Made by a program: the position numbers and the translations under genes
In this document: positions 2,727 through 47,208 of the stretch, in pieces
Layout of the letters: each line of letters begins with the position of its first letter
Position numbering within the stretch: position 1 is the first letter of the stretch
Source of the DNA: Candidatus Bipolaricaulota bacterium
GTDB taxonomy: Bacteria; Bipolaricaulota; Bipolaricaulia; UBA7950; UBA9294
NCBI GenBank assembly: GCA_018817505.1
Contig: JAHITR010000028.1
Location: forward strand, 13,736 to 77,735
Length of the DNA: 64,000 nt
Reading direction: 5' to 3'
Notes under the pieces: generated by a model
Databases searched by the model: none
What the model saw: the letters and a program-made list of their open reading frames with translations, nothing else
What the model was told of the DNA's origin: nothing

Positions 2727-2839
2727 ATCACGTGTCGAGCAGCAGCGTCGTGCCGAAACCCGACTCGCGGAGTACACTCAGGATGAAACTTCTTGCCTGG
2801 AGTCGTGTATTTGTGGGGCGTTCCTCAAAGGAGAGTCTC

Positions 2840-4480
2840 ATGGTCAGACGAGCACGGATCATTGTCCTATCGCTGTTGCTGTGTCTTGTTTCATTGACAG
2901 CAACTGCCTTGCCTGACTTGGTTATCTCGGAGATGCGCCTGGAGCCATCTCTCCCTCAAGCTGGAGAGTCCGTATTCATCGAGGTTACAGTCGTCAATGA
3001 CGGCCCCGATGACGTCGAGAAGCCCTTCTTCGTACACTTCTTGATGGATGGCCGCAAGATCGCCGTGCAATCCATTGTGGGAGGCGTTTCATCCAATCGA
3101 TCCAAACGTGTGGCCATCGAGTGGCTGGCGATCGCTGGCGTGCATACGCTCGTTGCTGAAGTCGATCCGCCCATCAGCCGCATTGATGAGTCCGATGTAT
3201 CGAATAATCAGCACTCTCTGATGTTCACCGTCGCTCTCAGTGAAGAGACTGTAGCCGCCATTGGTCCACTGAAGATCGTTGTTGCACCGTTCAGCGATTT
3301 GTCTGGGTCCGGTTTTCTCCGCGTGGGAGAAGGTGTCTCCGATAAATTGATGGATCAATTCCTGGGTATGGGCTTGCGTGTGCTGGAACGATCAGAGCTT
3401 GAATCCATCATGCAACGACGTGAACTCAATCCGTCTCTACCATCTGACCTCGCGCTCGCGGCACAAGAGTTGGGAGCTGACATCCTCATCGCAGGATCAG
3501 TGACCGCGCTTGACGTCCACGAAAGCTCCCTTCAGTTAGGTGTTCTCGCGATTCGTAGTGCTGAGGTGAATATCCGTCTGTCTGCTAGCCTTGTCGATGT
3601 ATACTCCGCAGAGATGGTTGGGGCTGTCGACGCGGAGGGATATGCCGAAGGAACAACTGGATTCTCATTCGATTTGACCGGATTTCTTGGAATCATGGCG
3701 TCAGATTCTGATGATCTCTGCGGCGGAGGCCTTCAGACTGCGCGATCTTGGTATAGCGTAGGCGAAGCTATCTCCATTGCCTATCACAATCCCGGGGCAG
3801 CTGACTGGTTTAGCATCGAAATATCAACATCCATCGGCTCGTTCGTACGATGGCTTGGCTGGCAGTTTGTCGACATGAATGCCTGCACTTTGTGGAATTG
3901 GAATCAACTCAATACCTCGAACCTCCAGATGTCTCCTGGCGTCTATACGGCCAAGATCTGGGACGGCATCGCCTATGTCGCTCAGGTAAGTTTCCAGATT
4001 CGCCCTGGCATCTCTCTGTCGGTTCTTCCCGCCACGGAGATCACCGTAGGTACCCCACAATTCGAAGACACGGTTGTAGGCAGTGCGCTCAATGCCGCCG
4101 TGGACAATTTGTCGGTGAACCTACTCAATTCACTGGAAACTGCCTCTGCTACCTTCGCTGAAGAAGCCATGGGATCCGCCGCGGCGAGAAGCCCGCTGTC
4201 CTCAAGACGAGAGGGCCAGATTGCCTCGCTTCTTCCTGACGGCCGCGTCGCCATCAATATTGGGGCTTCCGTAGGTGTCGCACAGGGTGAGTTGTTCGAA
4301 GTGCTCGGCGTAGCTAATGTCATCGTCGACCCCCAGACACTTGAGATCTTGGATTACGAAACGCTCTCCGTAAAGGGACAAATTGTGATCACCGAGGTTC
4401 GCGACAGGGTCTCATATGGCATGCGCACGTCCGACTTCCAACCGGCAATCGGCGATATCGTTCGATGGCTGGCTCCCTGA
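2840..4480 (+). CDS. secreted protein with an N-terminal CARDB-like domain and a central CsgG-like (curli secretion channel family) domain
   Basis: ATG at 2840 follows an AAAGGAGAG RBS and opens a signal peptide (MVRRARIIVLSLLLCLVSLTA). CARDB-like segment: LPDLVISEMRLEPSLPQAGESVFIEVTVVNDGPDDV. CsgG-like stretch: VVAPFSDLSGSGFLRVGEGVSDKLMDQF...ERSELESIMQRREL...ADILIAGSVTAL. Domain calls are motif recall only. Confidence 0.55.
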   Translation: MVRRARIIVLSLLLCLVSLTATALPDLVISEMRLEPSLPQAGESVFIEVTVVNDGPDDVEKPFFVHFLMDGRKIAVQSIVGGVSSNRSKRVAIEWLAIAGVHTLVAEVDPPISRIDESDVSNNQHSLMFTVALSEETVAAIGPLKIVVAPFSDLSGSGFLRVGEGVSDKLMDQFLGMGLRVLERSELESIMQRRELNPSLPSDLALAAQELGADILIAGSVTALDVHESSLQLGVLAIRSAEVNIRLSASLVDVYSAEMVGAVDAEGYAEGTTGFSFDLTGFLGIMASDSDDLCGGGLQTARSWYSVGEAISIAYHNPGAADWFSIEISTSIGSFVRWLGWQFVDMNACTLWNWNQLNTSNLQMSPGVYTAKIWDGIAYVAQVSFQIRPGISLSVLPATEITVGTPQFEDTVVGSALNAAVDNLSVNLLNSLETASATFAEEAMGSAAARSPLSSRREGQIASLLPDGRVAINIGASVGVAQGELFEVLGVANVIVDPQTLEILDYETLSVKGQIVITEVRDRVSYGMRTSDFQPAIGDIVRWLAP

Positions 4481-39283: not shown

Positions 39284-39520
39284 ATGAGCACGAAGCTGCT
39301 CAAATTCAAGCACAGGTTGACGTGCCCAGCATGTCATATACGAGTCCGATTTCAGGCGGCAACCGATGGCCTTGGGACGTGTCCCAGTTGTGGGGAGTGG
39401 CTGGCCCAGCACGGATTGTTCCCCAGAATCACCGTGCGCTTGAACGAAGAGCCAGGAAGAGATTTCGACGATACAGACGCGTGGGAGAAGGCGTTGACCA
39501 GAGAGATCAACTCGCGATGA
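39284..39520 (+). CDS. small zinc-ribbon protein (CPAC-x17-CPSC) with an acidic C-terminus
   Basis: AGGAGG RBS 5 nt before the ATG. 78 aa: MSTKLLKFKHRLTCPACHIRVRFQAATDGLGTCPSCGEW. Confidence 0.55.
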   Translation: MSTKLLKFKHRLTCPACHIRVRFQAATDGLGTCPSCGEWLAQHGLFPRITVRLNEEPGRDFDDTDAWEKALTREINSR

Positions 39521-39643: not shown

Positions 39644-41479
39644 ATGAGAAGATTGACCTATCTTGTTGCGCTCATTGCGTTGAGCTACCTGGCGAGCGGG
39701 CAACCAGCTCCACTGGGCATCTACGTAGAACCTCCCGCATCAGAAGGGCTCACCGTTCGAGTTTGGATGGACAAGCCAGTGTACGCCGTCGGGGAATCAG
39801 TGCAGGCATCGTTCCAGATCAATCGCAGTGCCTACGTCTACATTTGGGATATCGAGCCAACGGGGACTGTGAGGCAGATCTTCCCCAACCAATACGACAC
39901 CAGCAACTACTTCCAAGCAGGCGTCTACAGAATTCCTAGTGCTGGAAAACTCTATCGATTGGCTGTGACCCCGCCCACAGGAACCGAGTGGCTCCAGATC
40001 ATGGCGGTCACGTCTCCTGCAGTTGGAGTATTCGGGACGACAACCGCTCTGAGTCCATTCCCGGTTCTTGGACAGAATCCAGCGGTGTGGAGCGCTCAAC
40101 TGCAGGTTCAGATCAAGGGTATCGTGCCTTCTCAAGCAGATCGTGCTTTCGACTTCACGAAGTTCGATATTATCTCTGGCACTGCTCCAGCATATGGCAC
40201 GCTGCAGATCAACTCAACCCCTGCATCTGCGGAACTGTATGTCGATTCAGTGTTCCGCAGCTGGACGCCTCGCAGCATCGTGCTTACAGCCGGGACGCAT
40301 GACATCATGGTTCGAAAGGCCGGATACCAAGATCACACAACTCGCGTCTATGTTCGATCCGCTTCGACGCAAACGCTTACCGTGACCTTGGCGTCAATTT
40401 CAACGAACCTGCCTCCAATCGCGCAGTTCTCGGTCTCACCATCAGCGCCTCGCGTTGGCGAAGCCATCCAACTCGATGGTTCGACATCAACTGACGCAGA
40501 CGGGACGATCTCGTCTTATCAATGGGACTTCAACGGAGATGGCATCACCGATCAAACGGGAAGAACGGCAACGTGGCAGTACATGGTCTCAGGCGCCGCC
40601 ACCGTGCGACTGACTGTAACAGACAACCGAGGTGCAACCGGTCAAGCACTACAAACTCTCAATGTTCGTGCTGCCAATCAAGCTCCTGTGGCCCTCTTCT
40701 ACACGACGCCAGCCACTCCAACAATTTGGAGTCCCGTTATTCTGGACGCCAGTTCGTCATACGATCCTGATGGTGCAATTGCCACCTACCAATGGGATTC
40801 CGATGGAGACGGTCTCATCGATCAGACGGGGCGGACCATCACCAGGACGTACTACTCACCAGCGAGCTACTGGGTCACGCTGTACGTAACCGACCTGTTG
40901 GGTGCAACCGGAATTCGAACGCTGCCTTTGGTCGTCGGCCCGTCTTCAGTTCCAGGAATGCCGGCCATGGGGAACGTTCCTGGATTCTATGTCTGGGGAA
41001 TGGATGCATGGCGAATCACGGTCAACGGGTCACCCCTGTGGACTACACCACGCCCCTATCGCATCGAGTTGCGCACCGACGGCGTCTTCCTCAGTGCATC
41101 TTCTGGATCTGGCGTGTCACCCACGGGCCTTGTCCCAACACAAAACTCTGAGGGCTGGAAGTTGATTCTTGAGGGAAGTGTCGGCATATCAGCACAAACC
41201 TACGTATTCCAGGCAGTTGGCGCATCGTCAATCTATATGGACCTCGCGCTGGATATGGATGGCGATGGATACGTAAACCGCTCGACTGGGTTCGTTCGGC
41301 TTGGCCAGTCCATGGTCACTGCGCCGCGCAATCCTATCGTGATCGGCAAGCCAGACTGGTACTCTGGCGCCCTCACTCCGAATTTGAACTACAAGTTGGG
41401 CACGCCCGCGCTGTATTCAGAGAGCTCGCGCGTCATCTTCTACTTCACGACGATTGGAGCTCTCGGAGGAACCCCATAA
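39644..41479 (+). CDS. large secreted protein: DUF4384-like N-terminal domain, PEGA domain and two PKD domains
   Basis: Signal peptide MRRLTYLVALIALSYLASG. PEGA-like LQINSTPASAELYVDSV...IMVRKAGYQDHTTRVYV. Two PKD repeats: QLDGSTSTDADGTISSYQWDFNGDGITDQTGRTATW and LDASSSYDPDGAIATYQWDSDGDGLIDQTGRTITRTY. Confidence 0.7.
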   Translation: MRRLTYLVALIALSYLASGQPAPLGIYVEPPASEGLTVRVWMDKPVYAVGESVQASFQINRSAYVYIWDIEPTGTVRQIFPNQYDTSNYFQAGVYRIPSAGKLYRLAVTPPTGTEWLQIMAVTSPAVGVFGTTTALSPFPVLGQNPAVWSAQLQVQIKGIVPSQADRAFDFTKFDIISGTAPAYGTLQINSTPASAELYVDSVFRSWTPRSIVLTAGTHDIMVRKAGYQDHTTRVYVRSASTQTLTVTLASISTNLPPIAQFSVSPSAPRVGEAIQLDGSTSTDADGTISSYQWDFNGDGITDQTGRTATWQYMVSGAATVRLTVTDNRGATGQALQTLNVRAANQAPVALFYTTPATPTIWSPVILDASSSYDPDGAIATYQWDSDGDGLIDQTGRTITRTYYSPASYWVTLYVTDLLGATGIRTLPLVVGPSSVPGMPAMGNVPGFYVWGMDAWRITVNGSPLWTTPRPYRIELRTDGVFLSASSGSGVSPTGLVPTQNSEGWKLILEGSVGISAQTYVFQAVGASSIYMDLALDMDGDGYVNRSTGFVRLGQSMVTAPRNPIVIGKPDWYSGALTPNLNYKLGTPALYSESSRVIFYFTTIGALGGTP

Positions 41480-41561: not shown

Positions 41562-42668
41562 ATGAGAAGAAATCAAGTGTGGACAATGGTCGCTTTGGCT
41601 GTGGCGCTGATGTCACTCACAGCGCAGGGAATGCCCCTCTGTAGCTACCAAGCACCCGAGACGTTGCTATTGGATGCAACAACCTCGTTTTCCTATCAGT
41701 ACTTTGACGATGCAAATACGCCGGGCACCGATGTGAATACTGGCAGAGTTGATTTCAGCTTCAGTCGTCTTCGTGACGCAGAAACCTATGGCTCCACACT
41801 GCGATTGAATGGCTTGATGGGTTTGTCAGACTTCCTGCCCACTCAATGGATGAGCGAGGGAACTGCGTCGTACCGCTACTACGTTTCATCGAGTCTCCCG
41901 CTGTTTGGATTCGGCGGCATCCACGGACTTTTCAACACCAGCCAAACGCAGCTTGGCCTGGAAATACAGTCAGGTTTTGGATTCGGTAGATTCGGCGATG
42001 TAACCCCACTTGCCAAGGCCATGCTCGTGGACATCAATCTTCAGAAGAACAAGGTAACCTACGTCCCATTACCAGACAGCGTGTTGACAACAATGGCCCA
42101 AACGATTGGCTCCTTGTCTGCTGAGAACTCCATCGAGACCGTGGTCGCCTTGCTTGAGTCCATCATCGAGACAACAACCGGTTTGCAGCTGGATGCTCGC
42201 ACGTTGCTGATGATTGAAGATGTCGTTGCCAACTCTGATACACAGCGGTATTGCGGGTTCACAGCCCGAGCGGGACTAGGATACGAACTCCTTGATCCTT
42301 ATGGCGGACCACAGAGTTTCTTGCTCGCCTTGTCAGCCGATGCGGCCTATGCCCCTGATCCGAACGGACAGATGCAATGGCACTTGAGCTTTTCCGGTCC
42401 ATTCGATGTCGCAAGTGAGAACACGCTGACCGGATCTTTCTCCTACGAGGTTATGGTCTCAGACGCGAATTCTCTAGAAGCCAACTACTCCTTCCAGCGT
42501 ATCCAGCCTGCAGGCGGTGTGGCGGTCACTTCACATGTCGTCACATGCAATTGGGTGATCAAGGTCGCAGCGGTTGACACGCTTGTCGGATTCTCCATCG
42601 CCCGCACGAGCGAAGATGCTGGATGGTCCATCACGTTTTCGCTATCTACGGCCATGGATCTGATCTAG
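41562..42668 (+). CDS. secreted protein, paralog 1 of an uncharacterised family (possible beta-barrel)
   Basis: Signal peptide MRRNQVWTMVALAVALMSLTAQG. Conserved blocks shared with 44805-45941: LCSYQAPE/VCSYEPPE, GRFGDVTPLAKA/GRFRDVTPLAQA, DARTLLMIEDVVANSDTQRYCG/DVRGLLAIEEILKSSDVTRLCG. Amphipathic beta-like C-terminus. Confidence 0.6.
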   Translation: MRRNQVWTMVALAVALMSLTAQGMPLCSYQAPETLLLDATTSFSYQYFDDANTPGTDVNTGRVDFSFSRLRDAETYGSTLRLNGLMGLSDFLPTQWMSEGTASYRYYVSSSLPLFGFGGIHGLFNTSQTQLGLEIQSGFGFGRFGDVTPLAKAMLVDINLQKNKVTYVPLPDSVLTTMAQTIGSLSAENSIETVVALLESIIETTTGLQLDARTLLMIEDVVANSDTQRYCGFTARAGLGYELLDPYGGPQSFLLALSADAAYAPDPNGQMQWHLSFSGPFDVASENTLTGSFSYEVMVSDANSLEANYSFQRIQPAGGVAVTSHVVTCNWVIKVAAVDTLVGFSIARTSEDAGWSITFSLSTAMDLI

Positions 42669-42774
42669 TCCGGGGAGGTTCTCAGCAGGCGAATGCCTAC
42701 GAGCATACTCGGCGCGAGTTGGCACTTCAGCCGTCTCGGGTGCATCGCACACTAGGTGCATCCTAGATGACAAC

Positions 42775-42809
42775 GGTGGGGCGATGAAGGAACCCTTCAA
42801 CGCCCCACC
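42775..42809. terminator. hairpin between convergent genes (9-bp GC-rich stem, 17-nt loop)
   Basis: ggtggggcg ... cgccccacc. There is no T-tract after it, so terminator function is uncertain. Confidence 0.25.
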
Positions 42810-42856
42810 GAATGCCATTCAACCTTGAGGCCTGATTCACCTCTCAAGTCAGCCGG

Positions 42857-44071
42857 CTACGCGGTATAGGCTTGCCGTCGCATGCTGATAACACTCAACA
42901 ACAGTGTGACGACAGCGATGGCGCCGAGGACGGACAACTCGAAGGTCAATGCGCCCAAGCCCTGACCTGTAAGCATGATCTTTCTCAAGGCAGAATTGGC
43001 GTACGTCAAGGGAATCGCGTAGGAGATCGCACGCATGGTCGCTGGCATGGTTTCCAGCGGCCAGAAGACGCCACTGAGCATGATCGATGGTATCAGCAAG
43101 AACAGCACGAATTGCATCGCTTGAGCTTCGTTCTTGGCGACCGTAGACATCAGTGTCGCGATGCCCTGCAGGCCTACAGCAAACAAGACGATCACGAGAA
43201 TCACGGCTCCTGGATCGCCGACAAATCGAATGTCAAACAGCCACAGCGAAACGAGAAACAGTTCAGCGGCTTGGAACAGCGCAATGAGGCTGAATGCCAA
43301 CGTATAGCCCATCGTCACTTCCCACGCACTGATTGGGGCAATGAGAATACGCGTCAGCGTTCCGCCCGTTCGTTCACGAACGACGGCCATCGCTGTCAGC
43401 ATGACGGTAATCAACGTCATGGCGAATCCAATGATGCCTGGCGCTGTGAAGTCGAGCATACGAATCTTGCCTTCATAGAGTCGCTGCACATTGAGCAGTG
43501 ATTCTACAGTCACTGACGATTGTTGCGTCTCCAACACGGCCGTAAATGCATCGTTGAATGCAGCGATCACCGCGCTGGCAACAAGTGGATTGGAATCATC
43601 AATGACCAGTCGCGTGGGGGGGCCGGCATCAATCTCGCTAGGGAGCAGAGTTACACTACTGCCTTCAAACTGGACCTTGCGCTCTCCACTAGAACGTATG
43701 GCTTGGCTAACCACAGCGTTGGAAAAGGATTTGGGAAAGGCAAGAGCTGCCCATGCCTCAGTGCCGACCATGGAGAACGCTTCGTCCGCATCATCGAGGA
43801 TAACGATGTCAAAGACATCTGGATCGAGCGCGCTGACGAACGCTGCTGCCAAATCGACAGTCAGGGTGATGCGCCCCACTTCCTGGGTGCGGACTGAGGC
43901 AAGCCCGTTGTCTGCATTGACAATGACAATGGTTAAGTCAGAGTAGGAACCCGAGAATGAGTTGCCATAAATGAGCACAAAGAACAGCGGAAGGATGATG
44001 ATCAGCGCCAATGTGCGCCCATCTCTAAGAATGCGGCGCAGGACGTTTCGTGCGACAGCTAGACTGGTCAT
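42857..44071 (-). CDS. ABC-2 family transporter permease with a large extracytoplasmic loop
   Basis: N-terminal TM (LALIIILPLFFVLIY), a loop of about 200 aa, then five C-terminal TMs. 4-nt ATGA overlap with the ATPase gene. Confidence 0.8.
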   Translation of the reverse strand: MTSLAVARNVLRRILRDGRTLALIIILPLFFVLIYGNSFSGSYSDLTIVIVNADNGLASVRTQEVGRITLTVDLAAAFVSALDPDVFDIVILDDADEAFSMVGTEAWAALAFPKSFSNAVVSQAIRSSGERKVQFEGSSVTLLPSEIDAGPPTRLVIDDSNPLVASAVIAAFNDAFTAVLETQQSSVTVESLLNVQRLYEGKIRMLDFTAPGIIGFAMTLITVMLTAMAVVRERTGGTLTRILIAPISAWEVTMGYTLAFSLIALFQAAELFLVSLWLFDIRFVGDPGAVILVIVLFAVGLQGIATLMSTVAKNEAQAMQFVLFLLIPSIMLSGVFWPLETMPATMRAISYAIPLTYANSALRKIMLTGQGLGALTFELSVLGAIAVVTLLLSVISMRRQAYTA

Positions 44072-44805
44072 GAGGGCACCTCGCCACGTTCTTGGAGCAC
44101 GATGAAGGCATCGTCCAGATTATCTGTCCCCGTTTGTGCAAGGATCTCCTCTGGCTTGCCTTGTGTGAGCAGCTTCCCTGCCATCAGGAAACCGACAAGA
44201 TGGCAGCGCTGTGCTTCTTCGACGAGGTGTGTGGTCACCACGAGAGTCACATCTTGGTCAGCAAGGGCATTGAAGTAATCCCAGAACGAACGACGGAGTT
44301 TCGGGTCCACTCCCGCTGTCGGCTCATCCAAGAATGCCAATCGCGGTTTGTGAAGCAGGCTAATGGCCAGCGAAACGCGTCTGCGCATGCCGCCTGAGAA
44401 CGTGCCCACACGATCCCGTTTGCGGTCTGTCAGTTGAACGAGATCGAGAAGCTCATCGGCCCGCTCACGAACTTGCGCACGTCGCAAGCTGTATAGCTGC
44501 CCGAAGAATTCCAGATTTTGCATGACGCTCAAGTCGTTATAAACAGCGAAATCCTGTGGCATGTAGCCGAGCTGTGATCGAACGCGCGTACTTGGCATCT
44601 TCCATCCAAGCAAGGTGGCTTCCCCCTCATCCGGCCGAAGCAGACCACAGAGTGTGCGGATGAGCGTGGTCTTCCCTGCACCATTGGGGCCCGCTAATCC
44701 ATACAACTGACCTTGGGCAACAGACAGACTTAGTCCATCAAGAGCCGCTCTCTTGCCATACACTTTGCGCAATCCCTGCGCGCGGATGACGTGTTCGGCG
44801 GTCAT
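44068..44805 (-). CDS. ABC transporter ATP-binding protein
   Basis: Walker A GLAGPNGAGKTT, signature LSGGMRRRVSLA, Walker B LAFLDEPTAGVD. Confidence 0.9.
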   Translation of the reverse strand: MTAEHVIRAQGLRKVYGKRAALDGLSLSVAQGQLYGLAGPNGAGKTTLIRTLCGLLRPDEGEATLLGWKMPSTRVRSQLGYMPQDFAVYNDLSVMQNLEFFGQLYSLRRAQVRERADELLDLVQLTDRKRDRVGTFSGGMRRRVSLAISLLHKPRLAFLDEPTAGVDPKLRRSFWDYFNALADQDVTLVVTTHLVEEAQRCHLVGFLMAGKLLTQGKPEEILAQTGTDNLDDAFIVLQERGEVPS

Positions 44806-45941
44806 TAGAAAAGGTCCGTTTCCATGTACACGGCCAGCGAACTCGTCATTTCTTCATCGCCGGTCCTGTATTGCAGGCTGCCCACTAGACTGAGCCCAAC
44901 GGAGCCGAATATCTTTGTCGTCAGGCTGCCAGAGGCTGCATGTGCAGTTGCCGTGACATTGGAAGTTGTCCACAACCGATCGACAGTCACACGATACTCC
45001 GCGCGAGCGGTCCATCCATCTGGCAAGCGGCGCGTATACGAAGCGCCCGCCTTGATGTTCATCTGCTCAGGATGAGCAAGCCGAATCTTAGCCTCAGCGC
45101 TGGAATTAAACTGCGAAACAGGATCTGGAACCGCAGCATAGCGAATGAGGACGATGCCTGTTGAAGCAACGCTGAACTCGGGATAAACCATGGCAGAAAC
45201 ACCAAGACGTGCCTGCAAATCACGTCCGCACAGGCGCGTCACGTCGCTTGATTTGAGGATCTCCTCAATCGCAAGCAACCCGCGAACGTCGAGATCCTGA
45301 CCAGATACCAATTCAGTCGAAACCAGTTTGGCAACCAATGTGACGACCTTCTCATCGTCTGCCAAATCAATGCTTCCTAAAATCTGAGCCAGGTCCAACA
45401 GGGTCTCGTTGCTGACAGGAGCCAGCAATTCGCCAAGGTCAAGCAATTCATTTTGAATCGATATCGCCTGTGCCAGTGGGGTAACATCACGGAATCTCCC
45501 CGTACCTAGGCCTCCAGTCAGATCAAGTTCAAGGCCTTCTTGCGTGGATGCAGAGAATCCGACTACGCCAACGCCAAAGATATCTGCGTAGGCTGGGGTA
45601 TCGGCAGCAAAGAAGCTGCTCAAGCTGCCTGACCCGAACACGCTGGCCGCCCATCCACTGCCATCGGCGCGAATCTCGGTTCGTGCATCCAATGCCTGCC
45701 CAAAGGCTGCAGAAGAGTAGATGCCGGTGTAGTCGCCGACGAGGCTTGCAGACATCGTTCGATTGCGATCGTCCGCAAAGGGGCCGTCATACCAGTTGAA
45801 TGAGCCCAAGAGGCCAAAATCGGAAATGCGGCTCTCTGGCGGTTCGTACGAGCAGACGGATAAGGCAGCTCCACAGGCAGCGAGACCCGCCATGAATCCA
45901 AGGAATGCCGTGGTCACCACGACAAGCATCGTGCGTTTCAT
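44805..45941 (-). CDS. lipoprotein, paralog 2 of the same uncharacterised secreted family
   Basis: GGAGGA RBS, then ATG at 45939-45941 (MKRTMLVVVTTAFLGFMAGLAAC; lipobox LAAC). C-terminal ...AVYMETDLF ends in Phe, as in outer-membrane beta-barrels. 1-nt overlap (TAATG) with the ATPase start. Confidence 0.65.
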   Translation of the reverse strand: MKRTMLVVVTTAFLGFMAGLAACGAALSVCSYEPPESRISDFGLLGSFNWYDGPFADDRNRTMSASLVGDYTGIYSSAAFGQALDARTEIRADGSGWAASVFGSGSLSSFFAADTPAYADIFGVGVVGFSASTQEGLELDLTGGLGTGRFRDVTPLAQAISIQNELLDLGELLAPVSNETLLDLAQILGSIDLADDEKVVTLVAKLVSTELVSGQDLDVRGLLAIEEILKSSDVTRLCGRDLQARLGVSAMVYPEFSVASTGIVLIRYAAVPDPVSQFNSSAEAKIRLAHPEQMNIKAGASYTRRLPDGWTARAEYRVTVDRLWTTSNVTATAHAASGSLTTKIFGSVGLSLVGSLQYRTGDEEMTSSLAVYMETDLF

Positions 45942-45999
45942 GATCCTCCGATACTGCGTAGGCATCTGAGATAACACTACAGTGATTCGATGGAGGCGG

Positions 46000-47208
46000 T
46001 CAAGAAATCGAGGCATGGCTTGGCCGCAGCAGGGTTTCCAACATCTGATGCTTGATGCCGTAGGTTTCCTTCAGCGTCTCAATCTGCTTGTACGTTTCCT
46101 CTCTTGAAGCAGGCGGATCCCCACGAATCGCAAGGATCAGCTTGTTCTTGCTTGTATGTTCTAGAGACACGAACTCGAGAATCTGCGTCTTGTAGCCGTG
46201 CGCCTCCAATAGCAGCGCACGAAGCGCGTCAGTCACCATGTCGGCTTCTTGCCCCATGTGCACGCCATACTTGAGGACAGGCAGCAGATTCGCCGGACTC
46301 TTGATCTGCTGACGAACTTCCTTGTGGCAGCAGGGCGAACACATGATGATGCCAGCACCTGAGCGGATGCCCAAATGAATGGCGAGGTCCGTTGCCGTGT
46401 CGCAGGCATGCAGCGCAATCAGCGCATCCATCGTTTCCGGGGCCGAACTGCGGACATCGCCGATACGAAAATGCAATCCACCCATCTGAAGACGAACGGC
46501 AAGATCTGTGCACAGATTCACGAGCTCTTCTCTCAGTTCCACGCCCGTCACCACAGTTTCCTTGTCCAACACGGACTGAAGATAGTCATAAATGGCAAAC
46601 GTCAAGTAGCCCTTGCCTGATCCGAAGTCGACGACGCGAATGGCATCCTTTGTTGTGAGCTCCGAAGAGGCTACGGCGTGATCAAAGATCTCAATGAACT
46701 TGTTGATTTGTTTCCATTTGCGCGCCATCGCAGGCACAATGCGCTCGCTAGGACCGGTCACGCCGAGCGTTCGCAAGAATGGGCGCGATGAATCCACATA
46801 GCGCCGCTTCTGTCGGTCGTGTTCTATCTCCTGAACAGTCGAACGCGACGGATTTCCAGTTCCCAGCTTCGCTTTGCCCTTCTTGCTGAATTCGATCTGA
46901 ACATCCTGCGTTTCGGTGAACAGGTGAGCGGCCTTGAAAGCCACTCCGAGGAGACCACGGATTTTGTCAAGGCCATGACCCTGTGGGCCATTCTTGGTGA
47001 TGTCACGCGTTTCGTAGCGATAGACAAACGACAGATGCGGCTGCCCCTTCAGGATGACCCGGCGAATGACAAGCCGCTTCAGATCGGGCTGTTCGCCGCG
47101 ATACTTGGTCAGCAGTAGCTCAATGAAACTGCCGTCAGTCAATGCGGACGCGACCGTACCGAGAAACGCCTCCGTCTTCTCCTGATCAGTATTCCTTGTC
47201 GTTCCCAT
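46000..47208 (-). CDS. SAM-dependent methyltransferase (METTL25/Methyltransf_32-like)
   Basis: VVDFGSGKGYLTFAIYD glycine-rich SAM loop. Family recall from memory. Confidence 0.6.
   Translation of the reverse strand: MGTTRNTDQEKTEAFLGTVASALTDGSFIELLLTKYRGEQPDLKRLVIRRVILKGQPHLSFVYRYETRDITKNGPQGHGLDKIRGLLGVAFKAAHLFTETQDVQIEFSKKGKAKLGTGNPSRSTVQEIEHDRQKRRYVDSSRPFLRTLGVTGPSERIVPAMARKWKQINKFIEIFDHAVASSELTTKDAIRVVDFGSGKGYLTFAIYDYLQSVLDKETVVTGVELREELVNLCTDLAVRLQMGGLHFRIGDVRSSAPETMDALIALHACDTATDLAIHLGIRSGAGIIMCSPCCHKEVRQQIKSPANLLPVLKYGVHMGQEADMVTDALRALLLEAHGYKTQILEFVSLEHTSKNKLILAIRGDPPASREETYKQIETLKETYGIKHQMLETLLRPSHASIS

Follow-up and report, generated by a model that had tools for sequence, protein, structure and literature searches.

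Bacterial systems such as MacAB-TolC, LptB2FGC-LptA-LptDE and Wzm/Wzt or KpsMT with Wza/KpsD combine an inner-membrane ATP-binding cassette (ABC) exporter, which has a sizeable periplasmic domain, with a dedicated outer-membrane barrel encoded together with it. A combination of the same kind is present in the stretch of DNA analysed here, 64,000 nucleotides of a Candidatus Bipolaricaulota bacterium (assembly GCA_018817505.1, contig JAHITR010000028.1, positions 13,736 to 77,735; hereafter the window). In this window, the gene of a predicted outer-membrane beta-barrel protein, P2, is followed by genes encoding an ABC ATPase and an ABC-2 permease, and the gene of a paralogous protein, P1, converges on this operon. 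We consider it likely that P1 and P2 represent an unannotated family of 14-stranded outer-membrane beta-barrels, with a four-helix domain of about 80 residues between strands 6 and 7. On balance, we also favor a reading in which P2 serves a three-gene export unit as its dedicated outer-membrane component and P1 is a stand-alone channel of the same family.

Members of the Bipolaricaulota stain Gram-negative, and their envelope has an S-layer and an outer layer resembling a toga (bioRxiv 10.1101/2025.11.21.689855). The phylum has been described as an atypical diderm without lipopolysaccharide (LPS) (PMC6092417; bioRxiv 10.1101/2025.11.21.689855); its genomes lack LPS genes and contain a BamA-like "surface antigen" gene (PMC6092417). 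There is no recognisable Mla system (PMC10665443), and the outer membrane is tethered by Omp-alpha/Omp-beta of the Thermotoga type (bioRxiv 10.1101/2021.05.31.446380). The toga of Thermotoga maritima consists of arrays of lineage-specific beta-barrels over a periplasm of about 70 nm (PMC10160955). These toga barrels (pOMPs, Omp-beta) are comparable to P1 and P2 in being restricted to a phylum, in having several paralogs and in belonging to the same type of envelope, within the clade of Thermotogae, Bipolaricaulota and Fraserbacteria that they share (PMC10160955; bioRxiv 10.1101/2021.05.31.446380). The Omp-beta gene of Bipolaricaulota is reported to adjoin Omp-alpha/SLH and csaB (bioRxiv 10.1101/2021.05.31.446380), marks that are missing from the context of P1 and P2: their genes adjoin neither an SLH/Omp-alpha gene nor csaB, and no SLH domain was found among the annotated neighbouring genes.

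P2 (44805..45941, minus strand) is the first gene of the operon and encodes a protein of 378 aa, which has a signal peptide and ends in Phe. A longer open reading frame (ORF) opens at ATG 46016; however, the ATG at 45941 was taken as the true start, since it has GGAGGA just 5' of it and the preceding methyltransferase gene ends at 46000. The ATPase gene (44068..44805, minus strand; 245 aa) encodes a nucleotide-binding domain (NBD) only, and the permease gene (42857..44071, minus strand) encodes 404 aa. The three genes are translationally coupled: P2 and the ATPase overlap by one base in the junction ttcTAATGacc, where the ATPase start overlaps the P2 stop, and the ATPase and the permease overlap by four bases in the junction ctcATGAcc, where the permease start overlaps the ATPase stop. 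P1 (41562..42668, plus strand) encodes 368 aa and faces the operon from the other side. An earlier annotation of the window, made from the sequence alone (hereafter the initial annotation), had placed both barrel ORFs at these positions and had read the coupling from the TAATG and ATGA overlaps; both statements were confirmed.

P1 and P2 are true paralogs. In BLASTP they align over 336 residues with 26% identity and 44% positives, and the E-value of 6e-22 includes compositional adjustment. The three colinear blocks that the initial annotation had quoted as shared by the two proteins all fall within this alignment. A phmmer search with P2 against 1.84 billion representative proteins retrieved 108 relatives, mostly of 350-400 aa and the rest fragment-like, including proteins of the P1 clade (P0038 at 4.6e-25 and P0009 at 3.3e-16); word-indexed homolog searches retrieved 103 clusters for P1 and 138 for P2. 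The clustering of 300 near-full-length members yielded two large clades besides a few distant ones of small size. The P2-type clade comprises 134 members, 100 of which end in Phe, and the P1-type clade comprises 128 members, with a C-terminal Leu in 94.

All of the named close matches are from Candidatus Bipolaricaulota, Acetothermia or Bipolaricaulia, and P2 is 100% identical to an NCBI protein of a Bipolaricaulota metagenome-assembled genome (MAG). Two P1-like loci belong to Candidatus Fraserbacteria. The family is not unique to these lineages, given that sparse, distant members were found in one Poribacteria and one Gammaproteobacteria genome, as stand-alone genes. Family members, most of them with the operon, were also observed in GTDB-representative MAGs labelled "uncultured Thermotogae bacterium", "Candidatus Atribacteria bacterium" or "Thermotoga sp." (loci L011, L012, L015, L016, L018, L020-L026, L028, L033, L034, L037, L040 and L041). 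The ATPases of these MAGs are up to 92% identical to that of the window (91% in L011), and the labels appear to be placeholders or taxonomic misassignments of Bipolaricaulota bins.

AlphaFold2 (AF2) models built from the family alignment were confident for both proteins, with a predicted local distance difference test (pLDDT) of 86.1 and a predicted template modelling score (pTM) of 0.79 for P1, and a pLDDT of 85.5 and a pTM of 0.75 for P2. The two models present a common architecture, in which a signal-peptide helix and a short conserved N-terminal segment are followed by six strands, four helices and eight strands; the P2 model thus has 14 strands and four helices. In both, the 14 strands, an even number, close into an antiparallel barrel. 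According to DSSP, the four-helix insertion between strands 6 and 7 spans aa 148-223 in the P1 model (42003..42230, plus strand) and aa 154-231 in the P2 model (45249..45482, minus strand). Conservation in P2 is slightly higher in the insert (0.65) than in the strands (0.60).

The strands of P1 and P2 alternate hydrophobic, lipid-facing residues with polar ones. The family-averaged dyad hydrophobicity, measured as the mean difference between the two strand faces, was 2.03 for P1 and 2.49 for P2, while shuffling within strands gave about 1.0 ± 0.2 (1.03 ± 0.20 for P2) and none of 2000 shuffles reached the observed values. Foldseek searches of the Protein Data Bank (PDB) with both models returned only integral outer-membrane barrels; a sequence-profile search of PDB with the family alignment returned a marginal barrel match, 6r2q_B (E 0.003), and otherwise noise. 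The alternation and the confident barrel models therefore characterize P1 and P2 as outer-membrane-type barrels without a close solved relative. Both proteins start with a Sec signal peptide, which has a basic n-region and a hydrophobic h-region of 15-20 residues before the conserved L-x-x-C-x-Y segment, a pattern kept in homologs. At the other end, P2 closes with ...YMETDLF, an aromatic end typical of a beta-signal, and P1 with ...AMDLI, which is hydrophobic and non-aromatic. The initial annotation had noticed beta-like C-termini in both paralogs and the terminal Phe of P2, and this observation gained support from the 14-stranded models of both proteins, from the dyad pattern and from the prevalence of Phe in the P2-type clade. 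From these features we infer an outer-membrane location for P1 and P2. The four-helix insert would then lie together with both termini, because the strand count is even, on the side that faces the periplasm in known outer-membrane proteins; the loop lengths in the models agree with this placement, with turns of 2-6 residues on the side of the termini and loops of 2-8 residues on the opposite side.

The most conserved stretch of the family is GxGxGRFxDVTPLAxA, located where strand 6 meets helix 1. In P2 it reads GxGxGRFRDVTPLA (aa 144-157; 45471..45512, minus strand), and the columns G144, G146, G148, R149, F150, D152, V153, T154, P155 and A157 are invariant or near-invariant. The counterpart in P1 is GFGFGRFGDVTPLA (aa 138-151; 41973..42014, plus strand), with invariant columns at G138, G140, G142, D146, V147 and P149. 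The motif survives in the members from Poribacteria and Gammaproteobacteria as G-[LV]-G-[YF]-G-R-[FV]-x-[DN]-[AV]-T-P-L. In addition, two Cys residues are near-invariant in the Bipolaricaulota clades, one after the signal peptide (LCxY) and the other at the start of strand 7 (RxCG). In P2 these are Cys30 (45852..45854, minus strand), in the N-terminal LSVCSYEPPE segment, and Cys238 (45228..45230, minus strand), in RLCG, both in invariant columns; in P1 they are Cys27 (LCSYQAPE; 41640..41642, plus strand) and Cys231 (RYCG; 42252..42254, plus strand).

The two Cys covary. In a regular-expression scan of the 274 members in which the anchoring motif [DN][VAI][TS]P[LM] was found, both residues were present in 253 and neither in 14, with the first alone in one member and the second alone in six. 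Four of these six proteins are probably truncated at the N-terminus, since their length is just 332-333 aa. One of the 14 members with neither residue, P0069, lies inside the P1 clade and has both Cys replaced by Ser. Because the two residues are gained and lost jointly, they form a putative disulfide, which probably anchors the N-terminal segment at the base of the insert and of strand 7.

Small and medium monomeric channels, namely FadL, CymA and OmpG (14-stranded), and Tsx, KdgM/NanC and PcoB (12-stranded), are the closest structural kind. Nevertheless, their identity to P1 and P2 is 4-11%, their TM-scores are 0.26-0.39, and neither protein has a Pfam match to those families. P1 and P2 add the four-helix domain between strands 6 and 7, which differs from an N-terminal hatch or plug, and their extracellular loops are very short. 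Pfam and NCBIfam scans returned no match for either protein, in agreement with the initial annotation, which recognised no known domain; for the family as a whole this holds only in part, since 10 of 52 members matched DUF481 (PF04338) weakly, at E<=1 (best 1.4e-5). DUF481, represented by Escherichia coli YdiY, a putative acid-inducible outer-membrane protein, is the sole curated family with recurrent weak similarity, and two distant members, P0190 and P0199, reach its gathering score with matches in the C-terminal barrel half. The Pfam HMM of DUF481 did not match P1 or P2 even at E<=0.1. The membership of the window proteins in DUF481 was rejected, considering that hhalign gave a probability of 0.6% between the family profile and YdiY. 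YdiY is a protein of 252 aa, too short to accommodate the helical insert or the GRFxDVTPLA motif. DUF481 is treated here as a remote cousin and not as the home of the family.

The ATPase matches PF00005 at 1.1e-32. Its best NCBIfam model is TIGR01188 drrA (7.7e-71), whose score of 238.8 bits is below the cutoff of 312.45 bits, and among solved structures it comes closest to the NBDs of ABCA3, ABCA7 and ABCA1 (E 1e-59 to 1e-66), with insect ABCH, NosF and LptB next. ABCA3, ABCA7 and ABCA1 are phospholipid exporters. The permease matches PF01061 at 3.4e-31, PF12698 at 5e-31 and PF12679, with similarity below the cutoffs to the RbbA C-terminal, DrrB, SagH and YhgE/Pip models of NCBIfam, and the matches listed for its homolog search are all orthologs of the same phylum, with 68-91% identity. 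Its hydropathy profile shows a first transmembrane segment (TM1), an extracytoplasmic domain of about 170 aa (residues ~40-207) and then TM2-TM6, which shortens the loop of 200 aa given in the initial annotation. The presence of an ABC_tran NBD and a six-TM ABC2_membrane permease characterizes the pair as a type V ABC-2 exporter that is ABCA/ABCH/DrrA-like. Exporters of the ABCA/ABCH/DrrAB type, including insect ABCH-9C, YbhFSR, NatAB and SagGHI, are the nearest kin of the two proteins, although the NBD and the transmembrane domain are separate polypeptides in the P2 unit. To our knowledge, no system of the ABCA/ABCH/DrrAB type has a dedicated outer-membrane barrel partner. The homology to ABCH covers the whole permease, including the loop after TM1: it matches over its whole length the transmembrane half of the solved ABCH lipid pump ABCH-9C (8z01; E 2.6e-21), described as a "squeeze pump" of ceramide and lipophiles (PMC12578276).

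The gene context was compared across genomes with a narrower family alignment (A3), by scanning one genome per GTDB species, which resulted in 41 loci. These were supplemented by contigs from an exact protein look-up, and the window proteins were mapped onto all of them by tblastn. In all 28 P2-type loci whose sequence extends beyond the 3' end of the barrel gene (L008-L026, L028-L031 and L033-L037), the ATPase and the permease genes come next in the same orientation, and zero to about 15 bases separate the members of the trio. Identities to the window across these loci range from 29% to 71% for the barrel, from 54% to 92% for the ATPase and from 48% to 88% for the permease, and the genes flanking the trio differ entirely between loci. 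Beyond the three genes, the upstream Methyltransf_32 gene is shared with the close relatives L011 and L055 only, and at the other loci the surroundings are entirely different. A small ORF upstream of the barrel genes, also compared across the loci, is common to the window and L055 only, and those of the other loci are unrelated. In L034 (3303-4455), the permease ortholog was recovered as two overlapping tblastn pieces (query 1-136 and 129-404), which suggests a frameshift or an assembly error.

On the other hand, P1-type genes have no ABC gene within about 6 kb at L004-L007, L038-L051, L056 and L057, and their neighbours vary from locus to locus. The exception is L055, which carries a 71%-identical ortholog and where P1 converges on the operon just as in the window; the genome of this locus (GCA_963986125.1) has a second P1-type copy (64%, L056) with no ABC genes nearby. 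Because P1 adjoins the operon only in the window and in L055, the position of P1 is a recent local arrangement, whereas the barrel-ATPase-permease trio is an old, fixed unit. The initial annotation described two paralogs bracketing the operon within a self-contained export module. The bracketing is real in the window and in L055 but absent at about 20 other P1-type loci; likewise, P2, the ATPase and the permease are a strictly conserved unit, which fits the envelope export module of that annotation, but P1 is no part of the module.

The composition of this unit separates it from the systems mentioned at the beginning. The permease is of the ABC-2/type V kind and not of the MacB/FtsX or LptF/G type, and the predicted outer-membrane partner is a 14-stranded barrel that has its own helical periplasmic domain, unlike in MacAB-TolC, Lpt or Wza systems. 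No HlyD/MFP adaptor or OEP domain was found in the operon or its flanks, in the window and four examined loci; neither an LptA/C-like bridge nor a TolC- or Wza-type duct is encoded in the operon of the window and the examined loci. Tripartite efflux of the MacAB-TolC or HlyBD-TolC type was rejected, as there is no adaptor and no TolC-like fold among the matches of the barrel. An Lpt bridge was also rejected, since the permease belongs to the ABC2_membrane families and not to YjgP_YjgQ, and LptB is just a distant relative of the NBD; LptD is not among the listed structural matches of the P1 and P2 models.

If P2 is indeed dedicated to the exporter, the type V ABC-2 pump would move a substrate, probably amphipathic or lipidic, out of the inner membrane or the cytoplasm, and the P2 barrel would give this substrate its route across the outer membrane. 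Bridging would fall to the periplasmic domain of the permease, of about 170 aa, and to the helical domain of the barrel, of about 80 aa, which are the only bridging candidates because the operon encodes no membrane-fusion adaptor. P1, one of several paralogs per genome, would most likely work on its own as a diffusion or specific channel, and would lie next to the operon by a local accident of gene order. We infer the physical or functional coupling of P2 with the exporter, and also the class of the substrate, from these comparisons. A number of points weigh against this proposal. Direct contact between the barrel insert and the permease would be hard across a Thermotoga-like periplasm of about 70 nm (PMC10160955), unless that of Bipolaricaulota is narrower or further partners take part. 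The barrel diverges faster than the ABC proteins, with 29-71% identity versus 48-92%; fast evolution is normal for surface proteins, yet it would also be expected of a loosely coupled partner. In addition, type V ABC-2 relatives move lipids, lipophilic drugs, peptides or cations, so that the substrate class is weakly constrained, and a candidate Lpt-like lipid transporter is already known for envelopes of the Thermotoga type (PMC10160955).

The most serious alternative, which we regard as possible although considerably less probable, is that P1 and P2 alike serve the toga-like membrane as general structural proteins or porins, and that the operon of P2 reflects co-expression or a shared regulon, with the cargo of the exporter leaving by any pore. 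Family paralogs are several per genome and mostly stand-alone, their structural neighbours are small diffusion channels, the operon has no adaptor gene, and the togas of Thermotoga are themselves made of lineage-specific barrel arrays (PMC10160955). What this explanation does not account for is the order of the trio, which is kept in 28 of 28 loci, down to 29% barrel identity and with wholly changed flanks, and which is therefore hard to explain without functional dependence; moreover, the P2-type proteins form a separate clade with its own C-terminal signature. A narrower version of the dedicated unit, that it is a minimal, adaptor-less trans-envelope exporter of a lipid or glycolipid, is speculative and less probable still. 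In such an exporter, the ABCA/ABCH-like pump would take up from the inner membrane an amphipathic molecule, which would pass through the periplasmic domain of the permease to the helical domain of the barrel and be inserted or released at the toga-like outer membrane.

The other two explanations concern the nature of the barrel proteins. P2 could be a periplasmic or lipid-anchored accessory of the transporter, as a substrate-binding or lipoprotein subunit, and not a barrel, considering that some ABC-2 systems have accessory lipoproteins, such as NosL with NosDFY, and that the P2 of the window has L-A-A-C at residues 20-23. This extra Cys23 (45873-45875, minus strand) lies inside the signal peptide, and LAAC is unique to the P2 of the window: orthologs have ALGD, ASGA, SLGA, PLAA and similar sequences at this position, in segments such as ...ALGDTLSVC and ...ASGAGLSVC, none of them has Cys23, and the conserved Cys of LSVC is preceded by Val or Leu. 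A conserved lipobox, [LVI][ASTVI][GAS]C, is thus lacking; since it is not conserved, the family has ordinary signal peptides, and the call of one paralog as a lipoprotein, made in the initial annotation, was rejected. The two confident models with closed 14-stranded barrels, the structural matches, all integral outer-membrane barrels, and the lipid-facing dyad pattern of the strands also oppose an accessory subunit, which we hold to be very improbable. Finally, the similarity of P1 and P2 might be a compositional or chance effect and the family an artefact, as both proteins have a high content of Ser, Thr, Gly and Ala and share just 26% identity. This is refuted by the alignment, whose E-value already allows for composition, by more than 100 homolog clusters per paralog that bridge both clades, by the motifs and the Cys pair, colinear in both proteins, and by identical predicted architectures, and it deserves practically no credence.

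Some other features of the region were recorded. The gene that ends 58 nt upstream of P2 (46000-47208, minus strand) encodes a methyltransferase of the Methyltransf_32 family; it is also found 5' of P2 in L011 and L055 and not in more distant loci, and because it precedes P2 in close relatives only, it is probably outside the unit. Upstream of P1 by 82 nt and on the same strand, a gene at 39644-41479 (plus strand) encodes a secreted protein of 611 aa with DUF4384-PEGA-PKD-PKD domains. The set of an ArsR-type helix-turn-helix protein, a PKD protein and a P1-type barrel is also present at L056 (GCA_963986125.1) and absent from more distant P1-type loci, and the PKD protein may be a surface partner of one P1 subclade. 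A 78-aa protein encoded at 39287-39520 (plus strand) has two CxxC pairs (CPAC...CPSC), is zinc-ribbon-like and has no Pfam match; it is kept in L055 (6619-6852), directly 5' of the P1 ortholog, and in the window the PKD gene intervenes. Far from the operon, right after polA (42-2726), a gene at 2732-4480 (plus strand) encodes a protein of 582 aa with CARDB and CsgG (curli secretion channel) domains, which is a candidate for another envelope or secretion component. The GC content is even across the window, 53-57%, and nothing around the operon points to a foreign island. Scans for promoters and terminators around the operon gave results at or below shuffle expectation, and neither tRNA genes nor Rfam families at gathering score were found in the 64-kb window.

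Barrels and ABC-2 exporters are in themselves known kinds. What is new is an unannotated barrel family, which has a diagnostic motif, two covarying Cys residues and a helical insertion between strands 6 and 7, as well as the strict pairing, without an adaptor, of one of its clades with an ABCA/ABCH-like exporter in a phylum that branches deeply. The outer membranes of Bipolaricaulota, Fraserbacteria and Thermotogae are atypical, without LPS or a recognisable Mla system, and the outer-membrane proteomes of these phyla are largely lineage-specific. The P2-ABC unit is a concrete candidate for how material crosses both membranes in these phyla, and the first Bipolaricaulota isolate, reported in a preprint, makes tests of export by this unit feasible (bioRxiv 10.1101/2025.11.21.689855). 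If the exported material were a lipid, the unit would represent a previously unknown supply of outer-membrane or surface lipid in a deep-branching diderm phylum that lacks LPS and Mla. If the coupling of P2 and the exporter is one of co-expression only, the family would still provide a useful annotation of major outer-membrane proteins in a poorly known phylum.

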